Virus record (IMG/VR): IMGVR_UViG_3300031576_000464
Span: 4,811-68,810 of that record
Strand: one strand, 5' to 3'
Source: a virus
Taxonomy: Duplodnaviria > Caudoviricetes
DNA: 64,000 bases
Position numbers and translations under genes: made by a program. Below the pieces are notes generated by a model. The model did no database searches. It was not told the DNA's origin and saw only the letters and a list, made by a program, of their open reading frames with translations. Position 1 is the stretch's first letter; every line of letters starts with the position of its first letter. Shown one piece after another: positions 1,778-64,000 of this stretch.

Positions 1778-2002
1778 ATGAGTAGAAATACTAATCCATC
1801 CAATAGTATAGAATCAGAATATTATGAGAAGAACCGTAAATCTATTTGTAATAAATACGGAGGGAAATGGATTGCAATACTAGGTAAGAAAATAATCGCA
1901 AGTGACAAAGGAATAACACAACTCTATGAAAAAGTAACATCATTAAATCATAAAACACCTTTGATAATGTTCATACCTGAAACAGAGGTACAATTACTTT
2001 GA
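1778..2002 (+). CDS. DUF5678-like small protein
   Basis: KYGGKWIAI..KIIAS motif typical of this archaeal family. Confidence 0.55.
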   Translation: MSRNTNPSNSIESEYYEKNRKSICNKYGGKWIAILGKKIIASDKGITQLYEKVTSLNHKTPLIMFIPETEVQLL

Positions 2003-2145
2003 GCAATACCAACACAACTGAATGTAATCATGAGTGGGATTATGCTAATGAAACTACAAAGGATATTACTCAAACAAAATTCGAGTTCCATACACCATGT
2101 AAGAAATGTGGGAAAATTCAGATAAGTGAGGCTTGGTTATCTTGA
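1999..2145 (+). CDS. Micro zinc-finger protein (48 aa, TTG start; not in ORF track)
   Basis: MSNTNTTECNHEW...CKKCG; TTGA overlaps at both ends. Confidence 0.55.
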   Translation: MSNTNTTECNHEWDYANETTKDITQTKFEFHTPCKKCGKIQISEAWLS

Positions 2146-2387
2146 CAGATGCACTAGAACGTAAAGAGGTGGAATTGAAACCATACTCTCTAACAGAATT
2201 TGAACATGATTACTATAATGTAATGCAAAATCTTAGAGGTGCTTTGATTTGTTGTGACACGATACAAGAAAAAATTAGATTACGAAAAGCAGAATTTCCT
2301 TCATGGAATGATAAATTCTGTACTCTTATTACTTATCAGTCTAAAATTAGCCAGTCGTATCATGCTTTTGAGAGGAATAAAACTTGA
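2142..2387 (+). CDS. Hypothetical protein, MTDALERK N-terminus (TTG start)
   Basis: TTG overlaps upstream TGA; first 24 nt identical to the gene at 29444. Confidence 0.6.
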   Translation: MTDALERKEVELKPYSLTEFEHDYYNVMQNLRGALICCDTIQEKIRLRKAEFPSWNDKFCTLITYQSKISQSYHAFERNKT

Positions 2388-2500
2388 GCAATACATCTCA
2401 CATAGATAGTAAATATAAATATGCTCTTAAATTTGGATTAATGCTTTGTGGTATTTATACTGTAATAATAACAACTGTGGTATTAGTGATTTTAAAATGA
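2384..2500 (+). CDS. Micro membrane protein (38 aa, TTG start; not in ORF track)
   Basis: MSNTSHI... followed by a hydrophobic helix; TTGA and ATGA overlaps at its ends. Confidence 0.5.
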   Translation: MSNTSHIDSKYKYALKFGLMLCGIYTVIITTVVLVILK

Positions 2501-5682: not shown

Positions 5683-6702
5683 TTGTATAATATGGAGAAA
5701 ATGGTGATAGGTAAAGTAGAGAAACACACCACCACAACTAAGAGTAATGACATGAAGAGAAAAATAAAGTTATCTATAAATGAGGTAACAGGAACAATGA
5801 CAAAAATGATGAAAAAAGAAACCACAAAATATGAAACTGGTAGAATACCAACAATAGATATTAGCTTCGACCAATATAGACCAAGAAAGTTTGGTAAATA
5901 TATTGAGATAAATGGAGAGAAGGAATTAATTAAGGGTGCTATTGAAGAAGGATTACCACTACTCATTGAAGGAGATAAGGGTATAGGCAAGACAATGGCT
6001 ATAATAACCGTATGTGCAGAGATGGGATGTGGCATAGTTCCTTATGCTTGTTCTAGTGGAACAACAATGGGAGATATACTAGGGAGAACACAACTTCGTG
6101 GTGATAACTCTGTGTTTGAATTAGGTGTGTTACCAAAGTCAATAGAGGTGGCAAATCACTTCAAGCGTGGGATATTATATCTAGATGAGCTTAGTTCCTT
6201 AGAACCAGAAATACAAAAACTATTGAATCCACTAATAGATGATAGGAGAGAGATAGTGGTTAATGATAAGGTGTACTCAATAGACAAAGATGTAATGTAC
6301 ACAGTAATAGCATCACAGAATCCAATAGGATATCAGGGAACTAATCCACTCAATGAAGATTTAAGGAGTAGATTTGTGGGTGAAGCGTGGAGATACCCAC
6401 CATCAGTACAAATTGATAAGGTGATTGATTGGACAGATATAGACCCAAAGCATAGAAAACAACTATTGCAACTGGCAACAGATACTCTGTCATCAAGACA
6501 GAAGGGTGATGTGGAATATGTCATATCTATTAGAGATATTGCCCTATTTACCAGAGTTTATAGAATGTGGAAGAAAAAGAAAGATGAGAAATATCTTGAA
6601 AGGTCTATCCATAATGGCATATTAATAAAGTATGCAGAAATATCTGAGAGGGAACTAATTAAAACCCGTGCAGAGGAAACATTTGGAGTGAAGTTAGAAT
6701 GA
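5683..6702 (+). CDS. MoxR/CobS-like AAA+ ATPase
   Basis: Walker A GDKGIGKT, Walker B LYLDE, NP.GY.GT.PL...LRSRF; adjacent to vWA gene. Confidence 0.88.
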   Translation: MYNMEKMVIGKVEKHTTTTKSNDMKRKIKLSINEVTGTMTKMMKKETTKYETGRIPTIDISFDQYRPRKFGKYIEINGEKELIKGAIEEGLPLLIEGDKGIGKTMAIITVCAEMGCGIVPYACSSGTTMGDILGRTQLRGDNSVFELGVLPKSIEVANHFKRGILYLDELSSLEPEIQKLLNPLIDDRREIVVNDKVYSIDKDVMYTVIASQNPIGYQGTNPLNEDLRSRFVGEAWRYPPSVQIDKVIDWTDIDPKHRKQLLQLATDTLSSRQKGDVEYVISIRDIALFTRVYRMWKKKKDEKYLERSIHNGILIKYAEISERELIKTRAEETFGVKLE

Positions 6703-8471
6703 GTGGGGTAATAAAGAGAACGGATAAAGCAGAAGGAGAGGTATTAGACAGCGGTGAGGTATATATCCCCTCACTCCATATTTCTGAAGAAGATTTAATG
6801 GAAAGAACAAAAAACATATTTGAACAAGTTATAGGAGTTCCAATAATAATAACTGAAGATGATAAATGTAATTGGATTTCAATGGATGATAATGCCAAAT
6901 CACACATAATAAATATACAAAATCCACCAGAACCAGAAATACCAAAACAAACAGCACTACACCATGAATTAGGACATTACTTCTTTAGAAGTCCAGTACA
7001 AAAAGCATTTGAGATATTAGAAAGAATGGCAGTTTCCGATTTTACTGAAAAGGAACAGGTATTTGTTAAGGAAATATACAAAACAACTTACAATTTAATA
7101 GAGGATCAAAGAATAGAATCAATGCTTGGTGATATTTATGAAGGAACAAATAATAGATTTCTTGAAATGAGGGAAGCATTGGGATATAGAATATATAAAG
7201 ACATGAAAGATAAAGTTGATGACCCAATACATGCCCTACAAGCTTCAAGATTCTTCAATGAACACCTAGTTCCAGATAAATATAAAGAAGCATTAAGCAC
7301 TATGGAAGATGTTAAGCTAACTGGTAGAAATGGTGGTATAGTAATGACTACAAAGTATATAGAAAACGTACTGAAACCATACCTCAAGTCCATCACAATA
7401 CCAAATATAAAGGAACATAGAGGATGTAGCGGATGTAATGGAACAGGTAGAGGTTGTTCAAAATCACTATCAAAATTAAGTAATATGGGGAAAAGGTGTG
7501 AGAGAGATAATTCTAATTGTGACCATAGAGGTTTTGCAAATGTAAAACAGGAAAGTGATGAAGAAGGAGATATTGATGAAGGTATAGGTGATGATTTAGA
7601 AAGTGATGTAGATTCTCTTAAAAATCAGGGTCAAAAGGAGTTAGATAAGGCTAGAGAAGATTTAGAGAGAGTATCAAGAAGTTGGGAAAAAGAAAAATCA
7701 TTAACTTATGAAACAACTAATATAGAAAGACCGACAGGAGAATACAAAGTAAATGTTAATGTGGCACAGGATATGAATAGAATGTTTAAACGAATACAGA
7801 ATAAGACAAAACTAACTCTTGGACAGGATGGAGAATTTGTATCAATCCCACACGTTATACAAAGAAAGGCACAGGGATATGGTGATGTAATGATGAAAAC
7901 TAAGAGGGTGAGTGGTCTTACTGTTCTAGTATCTATTGATGCAAGTGGTAGCATGGATTCACCAGATATGATAGGAGAAGCACGTAATATGGCAGCTACA
8001 TTGTATAGTGCAATAAAGAACATTAAAGGAATTAATATGAATGTGATTGTTTGGGCAGGTGATGGCGGTAAAGATATTGGTATATCAGAAGCGGGAAGAA
8101 TAAAAGAATGTGCAGGTATAACGTGCGATGGTAGCTATTATCAAACACCCACACCAATGGCATTAGACTATTCAACAAGAAGATTAATGGAGATGAAGGG
8201 TAACAAAAAGGTCATGTTCTTCATAACAGATGGACAACCTGCCTGTGGAGGATATGATACAGAATACCTAACAGAGATGTCAAGAAAGGCAGTATTAAGA
8301 GCAGAAAGAATGGGAATTAAAATGATGGGTGTATTTGTTGGTAGTGATGAAGATAATATGAAAAGAATATTTAAGAGTAGATATGCCCGAGCACCTACAA
8401 TGAAGGAGGCAAACACTTTAATAACTAAGAAGTTTAAGGATATAGTGCTTAAGCAGGTGAAAAGACGTTAA
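6699..8471 (+). CDS. vWA-domain protein with N-terminal HEXXH domain (CobT-like partner)
   Basis: MIDAS DASGS, TPT, ITDGQP; HHELGH; acidic linker; CxxCxGxG motif. Confidence 0.85.
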   Translation: MSGVIKRTDKAEGEVLDSGEVYIPSLHISEEDLMERTKNIFEQVIGVPIIITEDDKCNWISMDDNAKSHIINIQNPPEPEIPKQTALHHELGHYFFRSPVQKAFEILERMAVSDFTEKEQVFVKEIYKTTYNLIEDQRIESMLGDIYEGTNNRFLEMREALGYRIYKDMKDKVDDPIHALQASRFFNEHLVPDKYKEALSTMEDVKLTGRNGGIVMTTKYIENVLKPYLKSITIPNIKEHRGCSGCNGTGRGCSKSLSKLSNMGKRCERDNSNCDHRGFANVKQESDEEGDIDEGIGDDLESDVDSLKNQGQKELDKAREDLERVSRSWEKEKSLTYETTNIERPTGEYKVNVNVAQDMNRMFKRIQNKTKLTLGQDGEFVSIPHVIQRKAQGYGDVMMKTKRVSGLTVLVSIDASGSMDSPDMIGEARNMAATLYSAIKNIKGINMNVIVWAGDGGKDIGISEAGRIKECAGITCDGSYYQTPTPMALDYSTRRLMEMKGNKKVMFFITDGQPACGGYDTEYLTEMSRKAVLRAERMGIKMMGVFVGSDEDNMKRIFKSRYARAPTMKEANTLITKKFKDIVLKQVKRR

Positions 8472-8898: not shown

Positions 8899-9306
8899 AT
8901 GACACAACAAAATAGAATCCCATTGGAAGAATTTACAAAAAGACTTTCTATGATAGCAATAGACTGTGACATGTATCAACAAATACTAAATGATGCAAAG
9001 AAGGCAGAACTTTATAATGAATTACTAGGGAATGTAAAAACTTTTGGAATAGAAAGAATCGAATATACTAGAATGGAACAAGGAAAAGAACACACAGAAC
9101 AAGATGAAAAAAACTCCAAGATTGTAGATGAGCTTAGAAGCACCATTATTACAAAACTAAAATCAGAAATTGAGGAAGAAACAAGACACATAAATCATCC
9201 AAAGGGAATATATAGATGTGTAGAACATAACTGTGATTATAAAAAACGAACTTGTGAGTTATTAATGGAACAAATTCAATCACTACTAAAGGAGAATGAG
9301 AAATGA
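8899..9306 (+). CDS. Hypothetical protein
   Basis: ORF track; C-terminal Cys/His cluster. Confidence 0.6.
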   Translation: MTQQNRIPLEEFTKRLSMIAIDCDMYQQILNDAKKAELYNELLGNVKTFGIERIEYTRMEQGKEHTEQDEKNSKIVDELRSTIITKLKSEIEEETRHINHPKGIYRCVEHNCDYKKRTCELLMEQIQSLLKENEK

Positions 9307-9942
9307 AATATTACTGTCCTGTCTGTAAATCAGATTATTGTTTTGATGGAAGCACAGAAGAAACAATAAAGAACGATGTAAAACAACATGAAACCCATAG
9401 CAGTATGCATTTATCAATGTTGAAGGAGATCAATAATTTAGAATGACTAGACTCTGCTGGACATGCAACAAGCCAGTCTGCAAGTGGTATCTATTACACC
9501 GATTAAATGACATCATACATCGCAGACCAAAGATAGAAAGATACCCAGACAATACTCCGAAAACGTATGAGGATAAGAGTGATACACAATGATAGAGTTA
9601 GATTCAGAGAAGGAAAAACGATTTATTGCCTTTCGTAGATTTTTGAAAGCAAAGAATGTAAGAGAAGCAAAAATTGAATTGAAAGACGGAACTATTTTAT
9701 CATACAAGAGTGAGGTAGAGTCAGGGAGTACAGCTTTAGGGTGACAATGTTAGAATTGAGTGAACAAGATAGAAAATTTTTAGATGTTCTGAATAGACAC
9801 CCAGACTCAAGTGTAATTCCAATGTGTAATAAATGTCTAATTCCAGCAGAGTATGATAAAGAAGAATGGTTATATCGTTGTCCAAAGTGCAAAGCAGAGG
9901 GTTGTCTTGTAGGATGATTAATACTTTAGTGAGGAAATGTAA

Positions 9943-10961: not shown

Positions 10962-11375
10962 GTGATAATAATGAAAGTAACTTATAGTAGCACAGAGTGT
11001 TCTTGTGGATATAAAAACAATCCACATAATAACATAACATGTAATTACTGTGGGATTCATTTACAGAAAATAGAATATGGAGATTCAGATGCGGTAATAG
11101 ATGAAAATTATAAAGAAATAGGAAAAATAATGACAACACATCATATTAATGTAAAGACCTTAATAGAAACTGGAGAGGGAGAATTATTTTGTAAGTTGGA
11201 AAATCCAATGACAGATAATAAATGGGAAATGTTTGTAGAAATATATGATAAAACTGGATATTTTATATTTACTGTTACAGATGGAGAAGTAGGAAACGGA
11301 TTACACATATTTTGGTTTATAAATGACGCTGGAATGAAAAAGAAGTATGAAATGTTAAAATCAAGATTCACATGA
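10962..11375 (+). CDS. Zinc-finger (CNYCG family) protein
   Basis: CSCGYKNNPHNNITCNYCG. Confidence 0.7.
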   Translation: MIIMKVTYSSTECSCGYKNNPHNNITCNYCGIHLQKIEYGDSDAVIDENYKEIGKIMTTHHINVKTLIETGEGELFCKLENPMTDNKWEMFVEIYDKTGYFIFTVTDGEVGNGLHIFWFINDAGMKKKYEMLKSRFT

Positions 11376-12769: not shown

Positions 12770-13107
12770 TGGAAATAAATGATAGAAGAACAGAGTGTTC
12801 TTGTGGATATAAAAACACACCAAACCATATATCACGATGTAACTATTGTGGGTTGGCTTTATTAAGTATAATTAATAATTCAATGAGAGATTTAGACATT
12901 GCACTATCAAGTATAGGAATAGACGTGTTTGGTTCTGGAGTACATGTAGAAGAATTACCAGATAACACCATAGTAGTAGAAATAAGTGATGTATATTCTG
13001 GATTTATTCCGAAAATAAGTAAATATTTTAAAATATTACATGCGGGAAGCAGTATAACTTTAGGTTATAGAAAGTTAATATTAAAACACCTACCTCTTAA
13101 TACATGA
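12754..13107 (+). CDS. Zinc-finger (CNYCG family) protein
   Basis: CSCGYKNTPNHISRCNYCG. Confidence 0.7.
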   Translation: MAKEIMEINDRRTECSCGYKNTPNHISRCNYCGLALLSIINNSMRDLDIALSSIGIDVFGSGVHVEELPDNTIVVEISDVYSGFIPKISKYFKILHAGSSITLGYRKLILKHLPLNT

Positions 13108-16457: not shown

Positions 16458-17453
16458 TTATTTCTTTTCTTTTGGGTCTGATACCCCAGCTACGTCTAAG
16501 ATATATTCTTTATCTTCTATTCCGTCTTTGGGAGAGTCTACCATTCTCATAAATCTTTTACTTCCACGCTTCACTAGATATATTCTATAAGTTGAGGCAT
16601 GACCTACAACATTTCCTCCTATAGGTTTAATTGGGTCCATATGAAACTGTGATGCTGTTGGGTCTGACTGTACTTGGTTTGTCATTATAACTGCACACCT
16701 AAAAAAGTATGATACATTCTTAAGATGTTCCATGAATCTAGATAAGTTATTTTGTCTTACTGATAATGTTCCCCTCCCCAGGTATTCTGCCCTAAACTGT
16801 CCTATGGAACCGTCAACTACTATGAGTTTGAACTTCTTCTCTAACATGAGTGGTGTAAGATTATCTAGTGTATTAATTAGTTCATCTGTATTAGGTGCAT
16901 GTATGTATGTAATCTTGTGGAAATATTTTGCTTTTCCCTCCTCTTTATCTTTAACATACCCACGAGATATGGCTATCTCTAATATTCTCTCAGGGCGGAA
17001 TGTATCCTCACAGTCCAACCATAGAACATTAAAGTCATGTTTTTCTATGGCTTCTATTGCCGCAACATTACACATCTGTGTCTTTCCGCTTCCATATTCA
17101 CCATATAATTCTGTTACAGCTTCTAATTCGAATCCACCCTTTAGTATGTAGTCTATATTAATAGACATTGTGGGTATCTTAATTAGAGTCTCCCTAAAAT
17201 CATACATATCCATAGTGTCCATCTGTTTTGGGCGGCATAGTTTCATTTCTTCTAATCTCTTCCACGCCAATGTCACTATATCTCTTGCGTCTGGTTGTGA
17301 TATGCCAGATATTTCATTAAGTTCCATTGAGCCTCTTATACATATGTCAAATATAGTTGTTACACCTGCAGAGTTTAGTTTTTTTATTGATACTTCCCCC
17401 ACACCTGGAAGGTCTGTTATTCCAAATTCACCATCAGTTCTTTTTTTATTCAT
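16458..17453 (-). CDS. radA: Archaeal RadA/Rad51-family recombinase
   Basis: N-terminal HhH (LPGVG), Walker A GEYGSGKTQ, LIVVDG..FR.EY.GRG.L..RQ, TNQV, PIGG..VGH.STYR. Confidence 0.95.
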   Translation of the reverse strand: MNKKRTDGEFGITDLPGVGEVSIKKLNSAGVTTIFDICIRGSMELNEISGISQPDARDIVTLAWKRLEEMKLCRPKQMDTMDMYDFRETLIKIPTMSINIDYILKGGFELEAVTELYGEYGSGKTQMCNVAAIEAIEKHDFNVLWLDCEDTFRPERILEIAISRGYVKDKEEGKAKYFHKITYIHAPNTDELINTLDNLTPLMLEKKFKLIVVDGSIGQFRAEYLGRGTLSVRQNNLSRFMEHLKNVSYFFRCAVIMTNQVQSDPTASQFHMDPIKPIGGNVVGHASTYRIYLVKRGSKRFMRMVDSPKDGIEDKEYILDVAGVSDPKEKK

Positions 17454-20331: not shown

Positions 20332-20366
20332 AATAAGTAATTACTTAACACCCTCATTAGAGCTAT
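20332..20366. repeat. 35-bp repeat copy 1 with 14-bp palindrome TAAGTAATTACTTA
   Basis: aataagtaattacttaacaccctc-att-agagctat; 32/35 identical to 60527-60561. Confidence 0.85.
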
Positions 20367-23421: not shown

Positions 23422-23988
23422 ATGAGATTAGTGTTCTCCCCAGAATTGACTAAATTCACATTTAAGGATAAGTTAATGTATGAATCTGGAGTGTTAAATT
23501 TTATAGTTAAACACATTTCATATAAAGACTATATGAGATATGTTATGATGAATGAGTGGACAATTAATATATCTCATGTGAGTGAGTCAGATGAAGCCAA
23601 GTTTAAATCTGTAACACCAGGAGCGGTATTAGATTTCTCCATACCTCATGGTATAACTAATAATGTTAGTAAGACTGTGGATTGCTATCTTAGTAATGGT
23701 TCTGGTGATTTGTTTATCAGACAGAATATGTCTACAATTTTACATGAATTATGTCATATGATTTTATATCTATATTATGGTAATATGAAGATGAGATTAA
23801 GACTACAAGATAAAGCTGTTAGGAGTGGGCAAGAAGTAACACTCGCCAATGGGGAAGTACATAATAGGAAGGATGAGGGAAGGTTTTGGACTTACTCATT
23901 CGGAGGGAGGAAGGTAGGACCATTTACAATAGGAAAAATATCTATAAAGGCCATTGACATAAGAGATTTGTGTATAACCTCATTATAA
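23422..23988 (+). CDS. HEXXH metallopeptidase-like protein (probable start ATG 23422)
   Basis: LHELCH motif; TATA-proximal ATG. Confidence 0.6.
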   Translation: MRLVFSPELTKFTFKDKLMYESGVLNFIVKHISYKDYMRYVMMNEWTINISHVSESDEAKFKSVTPGAVLDFSIPHGITNNVSKTVDCYLSNGSGDLFIRQNMSTILHELCHMILYLYYGNMKMRLRLQDKAVRSGQEVTLANGEVHNRKDEGRFWTYSFGGRKVGPFTIGKISIKAIDIRDLCITSL

Positions 23989-28609: not shown

Positions 28610-28610
28610 T

Positions 28611-28820
28611 TTACATCGCCAAATATGTATTTATAGTACTTTGTATGTTTACTCCGGTTTTAGATAAAATATCAGCTTTAAGTTGTTTAATTTTCTTAAG
28701 ATAACCTATGCAATCAACCGCCTGTCTCATTATATTACCATCCTCTCCTGGGTGTTTGTTCGTCATAAATGTCTCCAAAAGTTCTAATCTAGTTTGAAGA
28801 TATTCATCATCTGCAGCCAT
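28611..28820 (-). CDS. Hypothetical protein
   Basis: Leaderless start; first gene of the terminase operon. Confidence 0.55.
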   Translation of the reverse strand: MAADDEYLQTRLELLETFMTNKHPGEDGNIMRQAVDCIGYLKKIKQLKADILSKTGVNIQSTINTYLAM

Positions 28821-28866
28821 GATAAATTGTGGTAAGACTTATATTTAAGTTTGTTTGAGTAATTGT

Positions 28867-29837
28867 ATGACATTAACCAACGAGAGTGGAACTCTTCCCG
28901 CCAGGGGTTTTTGTGATGTTTGTAATAAAGACAGGATTTTAAGTAGATGTGATATACATACAGAAACACATGGAAAATGTTATAGATGTCACCTTTCAGA
29001 ATTTCATTTAAACAAGGAGGAATTAGTAAAATGATTAACAATACCAACACAACTTTGGATATAGGTGCTTATTTCCATTGTAAAAAATGTATGATAGGTA
29101 GATTGGCGGTTGGGTGGACAAAAAAAGGCTTACAAGTTTGGTGTGAGAATTGTAATCTCAATGTACTTAATTTAGATTTTAAAGGACAAAAGGTGGATGC
29201 TGTATGACAGGTACAACTATATGCAAACATCATGTTATATTTAGAGAATCACTACCACAGAATAGTAAGTGGTATTGCAGAACGTGTTTTATGGAGGTTA
29301 AGAATCATGACAAGTACAACTAAGAGTCAATGTCGACATATTGAATTAAAAAAGATAAGAAGTTCACAATATGAATGTAGTTCTTGTCATAGAACCACAG
29401 TAGCATACTTCGATGAACCTGTAAAAGGTGTGTGTGATTTAGTTTGACAGATGCACTAGAACGTAAAAACATCCAAGACATTATACCAGACAGATATATC
29501 ATAAAACAAGATAATATTTCATTTGCAGGATTAGATTATGAGGTGTGGAAAGTACAACCACCAATTTTTAGCGACCAAGTAGAAACATTATTAGAGAATA
29601 GTTATATGTTGTTCATTGATGACAGAAGAGAAATTTTTATTGAAAAATTAATAAATCCTAGTCCAAAACAACTTCAAGAAAATAAACATTTTTGGCGTGA
29701 ATTGAGAAATAAAATTGATTAGCAATACATCTCACATAAAATATAAAAATTTACATGATATAAATCATAAATCAAAGATGGTTAGAGAGTGTGAATTATG
29801 TCAAATCGAAATGTCAATAATGACTGGAAGTTGGTAA
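28867..29837 (+). other. Island of six coupled micro-ORFs (28867-29034, 29031-29207, 29204-29323, 29307-29447, 29444-29722, 29715-29837)
   Basis: Manually translated; ATGA/TTGA overlaps; five of six carry CxxC motifs; opposite strand to flanking genes. Confidence 0.65.
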
Positions 29838-29871
29838 TGACTTCACACATAAAGAGTATTGAAAAAACAAG

Positions 29872-30619
29872 TCAAGTAAAGTTATAATTGTAAATTCCTA
29901 ATCCTTTGAATAGTGGTTTATAGTATATAGCTATAACTATCTTAAGTAAAGAAGAGTAGTCTCCCGCCAGGACTGATTTTATATCTATATTACAACTATT
30001 TAAATGTGTTTTGTATATTGAACATATATTCTGTACGGTTGATACTTCAGACCTTCCTTTTCTTCCGAAGGTTACGTGTTGTCCATTAGCTGTATCTGCC
30101 TTTCGTCCTATTACTGCTGACAACCAGTTTGAACTATCTATGCTTGTTATATTTGTATTTTTTATCCACCTTCCCTTGGCTAATCCATGATAACCAAAAG
30201 TTCTGGGAAGTTTTCTTATCTGTTCGTCCTCTTCTATATGTCCAGACATTTTTCCTAGTGCTACTAATGTATTTGCCAGTGGTTTTATTTGTGATAGGGC
30301 ATGAAGATAGTTTCCATGTAGAACTGGTATTAGGTTCTTTATCCCAGTACCCTGTTTGTATAGTTTTATTGTTTCCCACATGTTGTATGGTATATCTACT
30401 TGTATAGCATAATTATAATGGTCTTCTTTTTCTCGGAGGAAATCATAATAACTCTTAGGGTCTACTCCTTCCCCTGCATTTAACATCTTACGTTCAAAAT
30501 CAAATCTATCTATGTTGTCTCCTGTGAATTTGTATGTTAGCATAACGTTTTTTACTCCACATTCCTTCAGAGCGTCTGCCTGTGTTTTATTATTACAATT
30601 AAAGAAAAAAATACTTCAT
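29872..30619 (-). CDS. TGT/DpdA-like TIM-barrel protein, split by a one-base shift near its 5' end
   Basis: NVMLTY, IPVLHG, YHGLA, SIDSSNW resemble phage DpdA2-type transglycosylases; ATG 30619 overlaps upstream TGA but is out of frame by one base. Confidence 0.5.
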
Positions 30620-31386
30620 TTTAAAGTCACTCTCTCATCAGTAAAACACTTTATTGCGTGGGGACACATACCATCACACATAAAATTCTTAACTCTATTA
30701 GGAAGGAGTTTATCTCTAATATGTGTACGTATGTTTTCTGCACGTTCTTTCATAATTTCAAATGTTTTATCTGTATCAGTCAGTCTAAATGATTTTGGTG
30801 TTGGTGTATCCCTTTCATCTTGTGTGTTGTTGGAAATATACATGACACAGCCCCATTTTGACTCTATTCCCATACACTTTTCTAGTAGAACTTTATACAT
30901 ATTAATCTGAAATTTATGATTATCATTGGCGCTGGAACTGTCCTTTTTAAAATAGTCTATATGGCCAGTTGTCTTCTTATCACAGATAACATATTCATCA
31001 CCAATCTGCATTATATCGTCCACAGAACCATATATTATATCTAGTTGCCGAGGGTCGTCTTTTGGAATTTGTACGGCTTCTGCATAAGTTAAACTTTTAT
31101 CATTGATAAAATCGTATGCTAAAAACACTTCATGTAAACTACAGTTTGTCATATAACTATTACTGTGTACAAGTTGACCGAAGTAAAGAGACCTTATATC
31201 TTCTGTTGTTCCTCCTGAAGTTGGTTCCAGTTTATTATATACAACAAGGCGAGGGCATTCTTTTAATAAATCTGATACATGTATGATACCTAGACGCTCA
31301 GTTTCCATTGATTTTATTTGTGATTTACGAAATGCAAAATATATGTTATCTTCTATTTGTGACTTGTTTAGCATATTATAAATCAT
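30616..31386 (-). CDS. Cas4/AddB-like PD-(D/E)xK nuclease with Fe-S cluster ligands
   Basis: HVSDL..CPR, G..VH, GSVDD...ICDKKT, Q...Y, C...CP....C. Confidence 0.85.
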   Translation of the reverse strand: MIYNMLNKSQIEDNIYFAFRKSQIKSMETERLGIIHVSDLLKECPRLVVYNKLEPTSGGTTEDIRSLYFGQLVHSNSYMTNCSLHEVFLAYDFINDKSLTYAEAVQIPKDDPRQLDIIYGSVDDIMQIGDEYVICDKKTTGHIDYFKKDSSSANDNHKFQINMYKVLLEKCMGIESKWGCVMYISNNTQDERDTPTPKSFRLTDTDKTFEIMKERAENIRTHIRDKLLPNRVKNFMCDGMCPHAIKCFTDERVTLK

Positions 31387-60526: not shown

Positions 60527-60561
60527 AATAAGTAATTACTTAACACCCTCTAAAGAGCTAT
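60527..60561. repeat. 35-bp repeat copy 2 with 14-bp palindrome TAAGTAATTACTTA
   Basis: aataagtaattacttaacaccctc-taa-agagctat. Confidence 0.85.
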
Positions 60562-63271: not shown

Positions 63272-63772
63272 TTATCTTTCACATATTCTCAACTCTATAT
63301 CTGTTATAATGACTTGATTATTACTTATTACATTACTAGAACCTAACGAATAAAATGGCTCTGTCTGTCTGTTTACTTTACACACCTGCAGTCTTCCTTC
63401 ACTATTTGCCTTTACTATCATATTAATTATATCATTAAATGGCATTATTCCTGATTTTGTCTTTGACACTCCAACCTTTACACTCTTATCCAAACCACAA
63501 TAGTTACATTTTGTAGTCGTGCTGGGGTTACTCTTATAGTCACACTCATTACACTCCCAGTCTGTGTTTACTTTCGTTCCTGTAAAGTTAATCTTTTTGA
63601 GGTATGCTGGCACTACTGTTCCCGTTGTTAATGTTGAATACATATTATTAATAGCCTGATGAGAAATGATATTGTTATAATTAGAACCCATAATATGAGA
63701 AAAAACAGAAGTATCATCTGAAGAATGTGAACCTCCTGATGGTCCCATTAGAAAGTCTTTAATACTTTTCAT
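63272..63772 (-). CDS. Zinc-finger (CNYCG family) protein with internal finger
   Basis: WECNECDYKSNPSTTTKCNYCG. Confidence 0.7.
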   Translation of the reverse strand: MKSIKDFLMGPSGGSHSSDDTSVFSHIMGSNYNNIISHQAINNMYSTLTTGTVVPAYLKKINFTGTKVNTDWECNECDYKSNPSTTTKCNYCGLDKSVKVGVSKTKSGIMPFNDIINMIVKANSEGRLQVCKVNRQTEPFYSLGSSNVISNNQVIITDIELRICER

Positions 63773-64000
63773 GTTCTCTTCTCTGATAGTATTATATACA
63801 CCATAACTCCCACAAAACCTATTCCTAATATTAATGTTATTATGTCATACATTGTTCCTAAATAAACTCCATATTGTCATATACAAATCTGCCATATGCT
63901 TCGTTGAAAACATATGTTGGTATTTTCTTTGTTCTAATTGAACCATCTGTCATTTTGATATGTTGTGGTGTTCTAGTCATAGTTAAAACATTCTTTCTTA

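Follow-up and report, generated by a model that had tools for sequence, protein, structure and literature searches.

How can two clusters of tiny genes in one virus genome begin with identical letters and then continue with unrelated ones? The question is raised by the window, by which we mean the whole 64,000-nt stretch of DNA analysed here, where a run of minute reading frames (locus A) shares three gene starts with a second run far downstream (locus B). The window covers bases 4811-68810 of record IMGVR_UViG_3300031576_000464, a complete virus genome of 68,810 nt with 35% GC and a terminal direct repeat of about 253 nt. Among the Pfam-supported genes of this virus are a RadA/Rad51 recombinase (16458..17453, minus strand; Pfam Rad51, E 5e-58), a Cas4-like PD-(D/E)XK nuclease (30616..31386, minus strand; Pfam Cas_Cas4, E 1e-6, and PDDEXK_1), an MCM protein and an RNase H-fold protein. 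The nearest annotated terminase belongs to a haloarchaeal tailed virus (30% identity), suggesting that this is probably an archaeal tailed virus.

Three gene starts shared by two loci

Locus A runs on the plus strand. Its first gene, A0 (1778..2002), encodes a 74-aa DUF5678 protein (Pfam PF18929, E 1.7e-9), whose stop codon overlaps the start of A1 (1999..2145), a 48-aa mini zinc ribbon of the CxH...CxxC type recognised from its sequence in the list of open reading frames and carrying segment 1. A2 (2142..2387), an 81-aa protein predicted from its family and an AlphaFold model to form four helices, contains the second shared patch, while A3 (2384..2500) is a 38-aa mini protein of membrane type by sequence; the third patch spans the end of A2 and the start of A3. 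Locus B, also on the plus strand, opens with Bm1 (28855..29034), a 59-aa Cys-rich reading frame from the same list, followed by B1 (29031..29207), a 58-aa zinc ribbon of a family of its own that carries segment 1. Two further mini zinc ribbons with A1-like CxH...CxxC sequences, B1b (29204-29323) and B1c (29307-29447), have no partner in locus A and sit between segments 1 and 2 of locus B. Then come B2 (29444..29722), a 92-aa protein that carries segment 2 and that alignments and an AlphaFold model assign to the alpha/beta type, and B3 (29715..29837), a 40-aa reading frame identified as a carrier of patch 3 by alignment. By eye, a putative TATA-like A/T box lies ahead of Bm1 at about 28838-28847.

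Segment 1 is an exact match of 16 nt (2004-2019 in A1, 29039-29054 in B1), segment 2 one of 24 nt (2142-2165 in A2, 29444-29467 in B2) and segment 3 one of 18 nt (2387-2404 in A3, 29721-29738 in B3), which makes 58 nt of perfect identity between the loci in total. The segments are collinear on the plus strand at both loci, and a count over all 68,810 nt of the genome gives exactly two copies of each. Two of the patches are longer than the exact match: patch 2 extends over 29 nt with 2 mismatches (2137-2165 and 29439-29467), and patch 3 over 43 matched positions with four indels (2368-2419 and 29702-29747), taking in the last codons of A2 and B2 besides the starts of A3 and B3. Every segment stands at the start of a reading frame, where the stop codon of the gene before it overlaps the new start codon (TTGA or ATGA; at B3 the overlap is 8 nt), and in six of six junctions a purine stretch resembling an SD sequence lies 9-12 nt upstream. 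From start to start, segments 2 and 3 are separated by 245 nt in locus A and by 277 nt in locus B. An earlier note on this DNA had reported three exact segments in the same order at two loci, each opening a translationally coupled reading frame, and this same difference in spacing; coordinates, strand, stop/start overlaps and distances were all confirmed.

Could such matches have arisen by chance? The longest exact repeat in 30 Markov simulations of the genome was at most 18 nt; chance therefore does not account for a 24-mer that has two collinear partners inside 0.8 kb, and we reject this origin. Nor is the likeness one of peptides alone: given identical peptides, the probability that the same codon is chosen in 18 of 18 codons is about 5e-7, so the shared starts are identical as DNA. 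Their composition is unusual as well, with 72-88% A+C and 0-8% G in the start islands against a background of 21% G. Genome-wide, first codons are only slightly depleted of G and no less structured than internal sequence. A genome-wide habit of shared starts was considered and rejected, as gene starts other than the A/B pairs share no more sequence than control positions anywhere in the genome. The patches match no Rfam family, complementary copies of the segments occur nowhere else in the genome, and promoter and terminator scans (of sigma-70 type and thus ill suited to an archaeal virus) stayed at background level with no site at the patches.

Unrelated bodies and an inserted locus

Behind the starts, the paired proteins have little in common. 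BLASTP alignments of A with B proteins are confined to the N-termini, and profile-profile comparison (hhalign) gives a probability of 0.2% for the A2 family against the B2 family and of 0.6% for the A1-like group (A1, B1b, B1c) against the B1 family. AlphaFold (AF2) predicts an all-alpha four-helix bundle for A2 (pLDDT 72) and an alpha/beta fold with six strands for B2 (pLDDT 86); the eight residues that they share lie outside the predicted fold in both, in low-confidence and probably disordered stretches. Neither A2 nor B2 has a Pfam family or a significant PDB fold match. The alignment of A3 with B3 is weak and covers 35 residues, both proteins being too short for homology to be judged. That the sequences between the segments are unrelated, earlier a judgement by eye, is thus borne out for pairs 1 and 2 by the hhalign values and, for pair 2, by the differing folds; the possibility that would have spoken against it, full-length diverged paralogues, is contradicted for both pairs by the profile comparison.

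The relatives of the individual genes help to tell which parts belong together. A1 is related to the N-terminal parts of P0006, a protein of the relative L058, and of g94 in the distant virus G020 described below. For A2, two relatives were found, and at the nucleotide level A2 is about 80% identical to L055 and L058 from position 2166 onward, that is, from the end of segment 2. L055, with 78% amino-acid identity the closest of them, has a 5' end of its own, which aligns with segment 2 in 15 of 21 positions, and its orthologue of A3 keeps 17 of the 18 nt of segment 3. These alignments show segments 2 and 3 to be native to the A-type cluster. A sister contig has an identical A2. On the other side, the B1 family comprises 11 relatives with variable N-termini, none of which has the shared start, and the two relatives of B2 begin directly at the body, without the seven extra residues of B2.

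B2 itself is a chimera of three plus-strand parts. Positions 29444-29467 are the 5' end of A2 (24/24), positions ~29465-29701 are a body of the B2 family with about 80% nucleotide identity to L057, and from 29702 on the sequence is that of the last codons of A2 and then of the start of A3. In the nucleotide alignments the breakpoints are sharp and coincide with the patch edges, and B2 lacks the C-terminal tail of about 14 residues that is native to its family. The geometry is that of a body dropped into the A2 frame. More generally, what relatives have in common with the window are single gene bodies only; the tiny genes thus move individually.

Locus B also stands out by its position. About 30 viruses whose large terminases are 62-71% identical share a conserved module in the order Cas4-like, p223, p172, TerL, with p223 and p172 separated by 27-60 nt; here the gap is 1,262 nt. 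The difference is a 1.26-kb insertion (28610..29871) between p172 and p223, found only in this genome in the comparison with the ~30 relatives and made up of a 69-aa minus-strand reading frame (28611-28820) and plus-strand locus B, the latter opposite in orientation to the surrounding late (packaging) genes. The near-adjacency of p223 and p172 in the relatives marks locus B as an insertion and the derived locus, placed and oriented like a moron. An element conserved near TerL was considered and rejected, the neighbourhoods of this module in the relatives containing no A/B homologues. p223 has no Pfam match. A GC-rich 10-mer flanks locus B (28896 and 29962); alone it is not significant, and its right copy lies inside p223.

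The same starts in a distant virus

Is this arrangement private to one genome? The 24-mer of segment 2 has no match in IMG/VR, and the 54 matches of the 16-mer all lie in unrelated contexts, as expected by chance. Segment 3 gave 36 matches in JGI metagenome contigs, 35 of them by chance; the remaining one lies on the contig of G020, which is also its sole true match in the IMG/VR scan. Scans of IMG/VR with the A2 and B2 families and of the metagenomes with the A2 family returned nothing, and the segment motifs are absent from 19 of 19 fuller records of TerL relatives. The carriers found in IMG/VR and the JGI metagenomes are therefore two genomes with three clusters, and any idea of population-wide linkers rests on this very small sample.

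G020 (40,318 nt, 41% GC) is a distant virus: in a tblastx comparison with the present virus, RadA and MCM alone are detectably shared, at about 40% identity. Even so, it has a segment 1-like start, the core of segment 2 and an exact segment 3 at successive gene starts, in the same order and with other bodies behind them. The exact 18-mer of segment 3 (20 nt in comparison with B3) starts a 30-aa reading frame. The gene directly upstream encodes a 210-aa protein with an HExxH motif that begins with MTDAL; the DNA for this peptide has the 14 nt of the segment 2 core, and 19 of the 24 positions of segment 2 match. Farther upstream lies an A1-like zinc-ribbon gene that starts with ten bases of the segment 1 region. 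The family of the 210-aa body has 12 representatives whose homology begins at about residue 8, the others lacking the MTDAL start. The segment 2 start thus stands ahead of three unrelated body families, in each of which other members are without it. Linker and body have decoupled histories: L055 has the nearest A2 body and the less similar segment 2 region (15/21), whereas G020 has an unrelated body and the exact core.

The likeness to G020 is not limited to the three segments. Five exact matches of at least 18 nt exist between the window and G020, against about 0.3 expected. The whole set is collinear inside 2 kb of G020, and all but one of the matches fall at gene boundaries. Three of the five fall in a plus-strand gene for a 135-aa protein (8899..9306), where a 25-mer at the start (8899-8923), a 24-mer in mid-gene (9109-9132) and 20+13 nt at the end of the gene and the next start (9274-9307) are shared with G020; what lies between one island and the next is unrelated in the two viruses and not of equal length. 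The 25-nt start island in G020 and the reading frame behind it are not in the same frame. Islands can thus be sub-genic, like the one in mid-gene, and can persist as scars, the unit of exchange not being strictly the gene. The earlier note had proposed a search of viral metagenomes for other genes behind the same segments, and had named as a counterargument that the segments never precede other payloads in relatives. G020, with its other bodies, answers both partly in favour of the proposal, yet it is the one carrier among matches otherwise due to chance, and the 19 fuller TerL relatives are without the motifs.

A proposed exchange between start linkers, its rivals and its known counterparts

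How, then, did the same starts come to stand before different genes? The reading that we prefer, with a probability of roughly one in two, is modular exchange of the linker type, brought about by general homologous recombination: a variant of Botstein/PeSL shuffling that acts at coding starts. The segments would be start linkers, each consisting of the stop/start overlap and the first 5-8 codons of a coupled tiny early gene, and they would persist while the bodies between them are exchanged. Locus A would be the resident early-gene cluster and locus B a second copy of the linker frame in a moron-like insertion, holding bodies of foreign families (B1, B2). The exchange could proceed by ordinary homologous recombination anchored in identical stretches of 14-25 nt, with the viral RadA as the candidate enzyme and presumably the Cas4-like nuclease as a candidate end-processing partner, and it may take place during mixed infection or between two loci of one genome. 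The same recombination would keep the A and B copies of the linkers identical. The linkers may be retained for their working translation start and the coupling to the next gene, so that bodies swapped in frame would stay expressed. Stretches of 14-24 nt come close to the shortest on which recombinases exchange DNA efficiently. The known relatives of B2 sit in linker-free contexts, which suggests that the first capture of the B2 body, at least, needed non-homologous joints. The mid-gene and out-of-frame islands shared with G020 fit scars or anchors and not tidy gene cassettes.

Does the genome contain a dedicated machinery for such swaps? The earlier note had seen expression-ready slots into which new genes are swapped, a capture mechanism with no integrase or reverse transcriptase visible. 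The slots find support in the unrelated bodies, the B2 chimera and G020. With two copies per segment, no other shared gene starts and few carriers, however, there is no sign of a dedicated gene-capture system, and this part of the proposal finds no support. The remark on enzymes holds for the complete genome, in which no tyrosine integrase, serine recombinase, resolvase or reverse transcriptase and no att-like repeated site were found. A more far-reaching version of exchange between linkers, which we advance tentatively and think rather unlikely to hold, would be an exchange grammar for a lineage of tailed viruses of archaeal type. Start modules in a set series, letter-identical across viruses with about 40% identity in core genes, would mark the places between which RadA swaps small, unrelated genes in frame. 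Such swaps would occur between co-infecting viruses and between loci, and a captured body would be translated and coupled at once. As a still more speculative addition, the antisense transcript of locus B, which is inverted within the late module, could pair with the A1-A3 starts and time the shut-off of these genes.

The patches could also be relics of a single event without a later role in exchange. Stretches of A may have been copied ectopically into B by gene conversion or by template switching during repair or replication; in another form of this idea, A was duplicated and the copy then received other bodies. In either form the patches would be by-products. The perfection of the A/B identity over 58 nt, set against 19 of 24 positions of segment 2 in G020, is what one would expect of such copying, and so are the nativeness of segments 2 and 3 to the A-type cluster (15/21 and 17/18 in L055), the derived, inserted nature of locus B and the lack of further gene starts that share sequence in the genome. 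We nevertheless consider a one-off event unlikely. It would take three in-frame patches of separate origin, or six breakpoints, every one of them at a gene start and without a change of order. Conversion, for its part, requires flanking homology, of which there is none here. Moreover, it leaves the order and the other bodies in G020 and the islands at 8899-9306 unexplained.

Somewhat less probable still is that the patches are conserved for a function of the nucleotides themselves. They could be initiation modules of the TTG-started coupled mini-genes, with an A+C-rich, G-poor sequence directly after the start. They could also be pairing sites: a late minus-strand RNA running through the inverted locus B would be perfectly complementary to the starts of the early genes A1-A3 and could silence them. 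In favour of a function of the nucleotides are the identity at the DNA level that is centred on start codons, with an SD-like stretch in six junctions, the composition of the islands (72-88% A+C, 0-8% G against 21% G), their retention in a virus whose core genes are about 40% identical, and the position of locus B, antisense inside a module that is contiguous in relatives. Against it stand the first codons genome-wide, which are only slightly G-depleted and no less structured than internal sequence, and the start island that is out of frame with its reading frame in G020. Three sequences with two copies each are unlike a single operator, B1 and B2 are intact members of real families, which makes locus B more than an antisense gene, and neither an Rfam match nor a complementary copy elsewhere was found.

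Might the shared N-terminal peptides instead serve as address tags on unrelated proteins, like the capsid-targeting sequence of T4 internal proteins? They are outside the predicted folds, in low-confidence and probably disordered regions, and the same peptide is found on different bodies in two viruses. We regard this as very improbable all the same: there are three peptides with two copies each and not one tag on many proteins, selection on peptides cannot account for identical codons (~5e-7), the genes lie in an early-type block of tiny genes and not among virion genes, and one island is out of frame in G020. Hardly tenable, finally, is an old duplication whose full-length diverged paralogues are recognisable at the N-termini only, for despite the same gene order, the similar sizes, the zinc ribbons in both A1 and B1 and the weak A3/B3 alignment over 35 residues, paralogy is rejected for pairs 1 and 2 by BLASTP, by hhalign (0.2% and 0.6%), by the different predicted folds of A2 and B2, by relatives of B1 and B2 without the shared starts, by the sharp B2 breakpoints and by a perfection of the patches that is incompatible with bodies diverged past recognition.

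We return to exchange between start linkers to place it in the context of known systems. The linker exchange of phage modules is an idea from about 1980, and to our knowledge few systems have yielded actual linkers, chief among them the intergenic PeSLs of T4-type phages. Here the linkers lie within coding sequence, are resolved to the base and have clean breakpoints. The Botstein/Campbell linker model and the T4-type PeSL cassettes are described by Arbiol et al. 2010 (PMC2839356) and Comeau et al. 2014 (PMC4122927), PeSLs being intergenic units of a promoter and a stem-loop terminator that occur in many copies per genome (PMC2839356). As in these systems, short conserved sequences flank small, variable and mostly orphan genes in a plastic early region. 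As with PeSLs, the exchange is ascribed to viral general recombination at small patches of homology without an integrase, and the linker supplies expression signals, so that an incoming gene would work at once. Conserved short flanks around interchangeable non-homologous modules are indeed present in A, B and G020, and the same linkers in the same order recur in G020 and partly in L055 (17/18 of segment 3), though not in the 19 TerL relatives nor in any other public contig scanned. Unlike PeSLs, the linkers are coding (the stop/start overlap and the first 5-8 codons), which creates N-terminal in-frame fusions in coupled operons. The patches are coding starts and not intergenic early promoters with stem-loop terminators, there are three distinct linkers in two copies each instead of many copies of one motif across hyperplastic regions, and the host lineage is apparently archaeal (RadA, MCM).

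Moron accretion (Hendrix et al. 2000, as far as summarised in PMC2839356) also offers a likeness. Locus B is a small extra block between genes that are adjacent in relatives, in opposite orientation to the late genes. Morons are thought, however, to be non-homologous arrivals without linkers, and locus B shares three start linkers with a resident cluster. The T4 internal-protein loci with their capsid-targeting sequence (reviewed in PMC3012670 and mentioned in PMC2839356) likewise have a short conserved N-terminus before many unrelated bodies in a hyperplastic locus. There, one tag serves all proteins, acts at the peptide level and is removed by the prohead protease; here, three starts follow in a fixed order with identity at the DNA level and no sign of virion targeting, and the set has no single N-terminal peptide in common but three peptides with two copies each. 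Integron-like capture would involve an integrase with attI/attC sites, of which the complete genome has none. A diversity-generating retroelement does not fit either, with no reverse transcriptase, bodies that cannot be aligned and lengths that differ, and pairs 1 and 2 do not have the whole-length homology of paralogous pairs. With regard to the enzyme, phage recombinases studied by Martinsohn et al. (2008) and De Paepe et al. (2014) reportedly exchange at short or imperfect homologies and generate mosaics. Those are Red/Rad52-type annealases of temperate bacteriophages acting on longer diverged homologies; here, the only candidate is a recombinase of the RadA/Rad51 type.

What would exchange between start linkers mean for such viruses? 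The linkers are kept across very distant viruses that encode a recombinase of eukaryote/archaeal type, with three families behind one start. Tiny orphan genes coupled in translation frequently serve counter-defence. If further genomes bear the pattern out, it would account for the way in which operons of such genes take up new members without loss of expression, and it would provide a simple sequence signature of exchange points in viral dark matter. On the practical side, N-terminal identity between tiny viral reading frames should not be taken as protein homology.

Two further repeats deserve a brief mention. A 19-mer common to positions 23759 and 29974 is an isolated match, and a 28-nt patch, confirmed as an exact 28-mer, is identical in two zinc-finger genes of the same genome.

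Gene boundaries and neighbours in relatives

The boundary between A1, the mini zinc ribbon of locus A, and A2, the predicted four-helix protein that follows it, is plastic too: in the relative L058, an A1-like zinc ribbon and an A2-like body are joined in a single 113-aa ORF (P0006, L058:873-1214). In G020, the distant virus that carries the same gene starts in the same order, the 25-nt start island in common with the window gene at 8899 opens only a 22-codon ORF (L127:14972-15040), which overlaps out of frame with the 121-aa ORF bearing the other two islands. A frameshift could account for this, or the short ORF could be a leader or a scar left by recombination.

In the relative L055, the A2/A3-like genes are followed immediately 3' by a gene for a 115-aa protein (L055:1176-1523), which by eye looks like an archaeal Holliday-junction-resolvase-type nuclease. 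In L054, a gene of the family of B2, the alpha/beta chimera of locus B, directly follows, with an 8-nt overlap, a 609-aa gene (L054:124-1953) that resembles a large terminase. This suggests that B2-type genes may tend to lie beside packaging genes, as is the case for locus B in the window.

Borders and end of locus B

Two short repeats are found around locus B, neither of which is significant by itself: a GC-rich 10-mer with exactly two copies in the window, one on either side of the locus (28896-28905 and 29962-29971), and a 19-mer (23759-23777 and 29974-29992), whose second copy comes after the right-hand copy of the 10-mer. The right-hand copies of both fall within the 3' part of the packaging-module gene p223. 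At the end of the locus, a 29-aa ORF (29798-29887) opens with the recurrent M-S-N motif in a different frame from B3, the 40-aa ORF whose 3' end it overlaps. Since B3 contains only one CxxC pair, the true coding arrangement at this end is uncertain.

Other repeats in the window

An exact 28-nt repeat (10992-11019 and 12790-12817) lies inside two paralogous zinc-finger genes, embedded in 97 nt at 76% identity. Both genes belong to a family of 7-8 members with C..C...CNYCG fingers and differing C-terminal parts, and the patchy identity is of the same sort as in the starts shared by loci A and B. An exact 24-nt intergenic repeat with a palindromic core (20332-20355 and 60527-60550; 63 nt at 75% around it) is probably a regulatory site.

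Genome ends and virus type

Despite its IMG/VR class of 'linear, no end repeats', the record has direct repeats of ~253 nt at its two ends, at genome 1-253 (upstream of the window) and at window 63748-64000, which differ by one mismatch. The genome is therefore complete, and its unique part amounts to ~68.56 kb. Window positions 5683-8471 encode an AAA_5 (MoxR/CobS-like) ATPase and, after it, a VWA-domain protein; together with RadA, MCM and a Cas4-like nuclease, this pair points to an archaeal tailed virus, possibly of the thaumarchaeal type.
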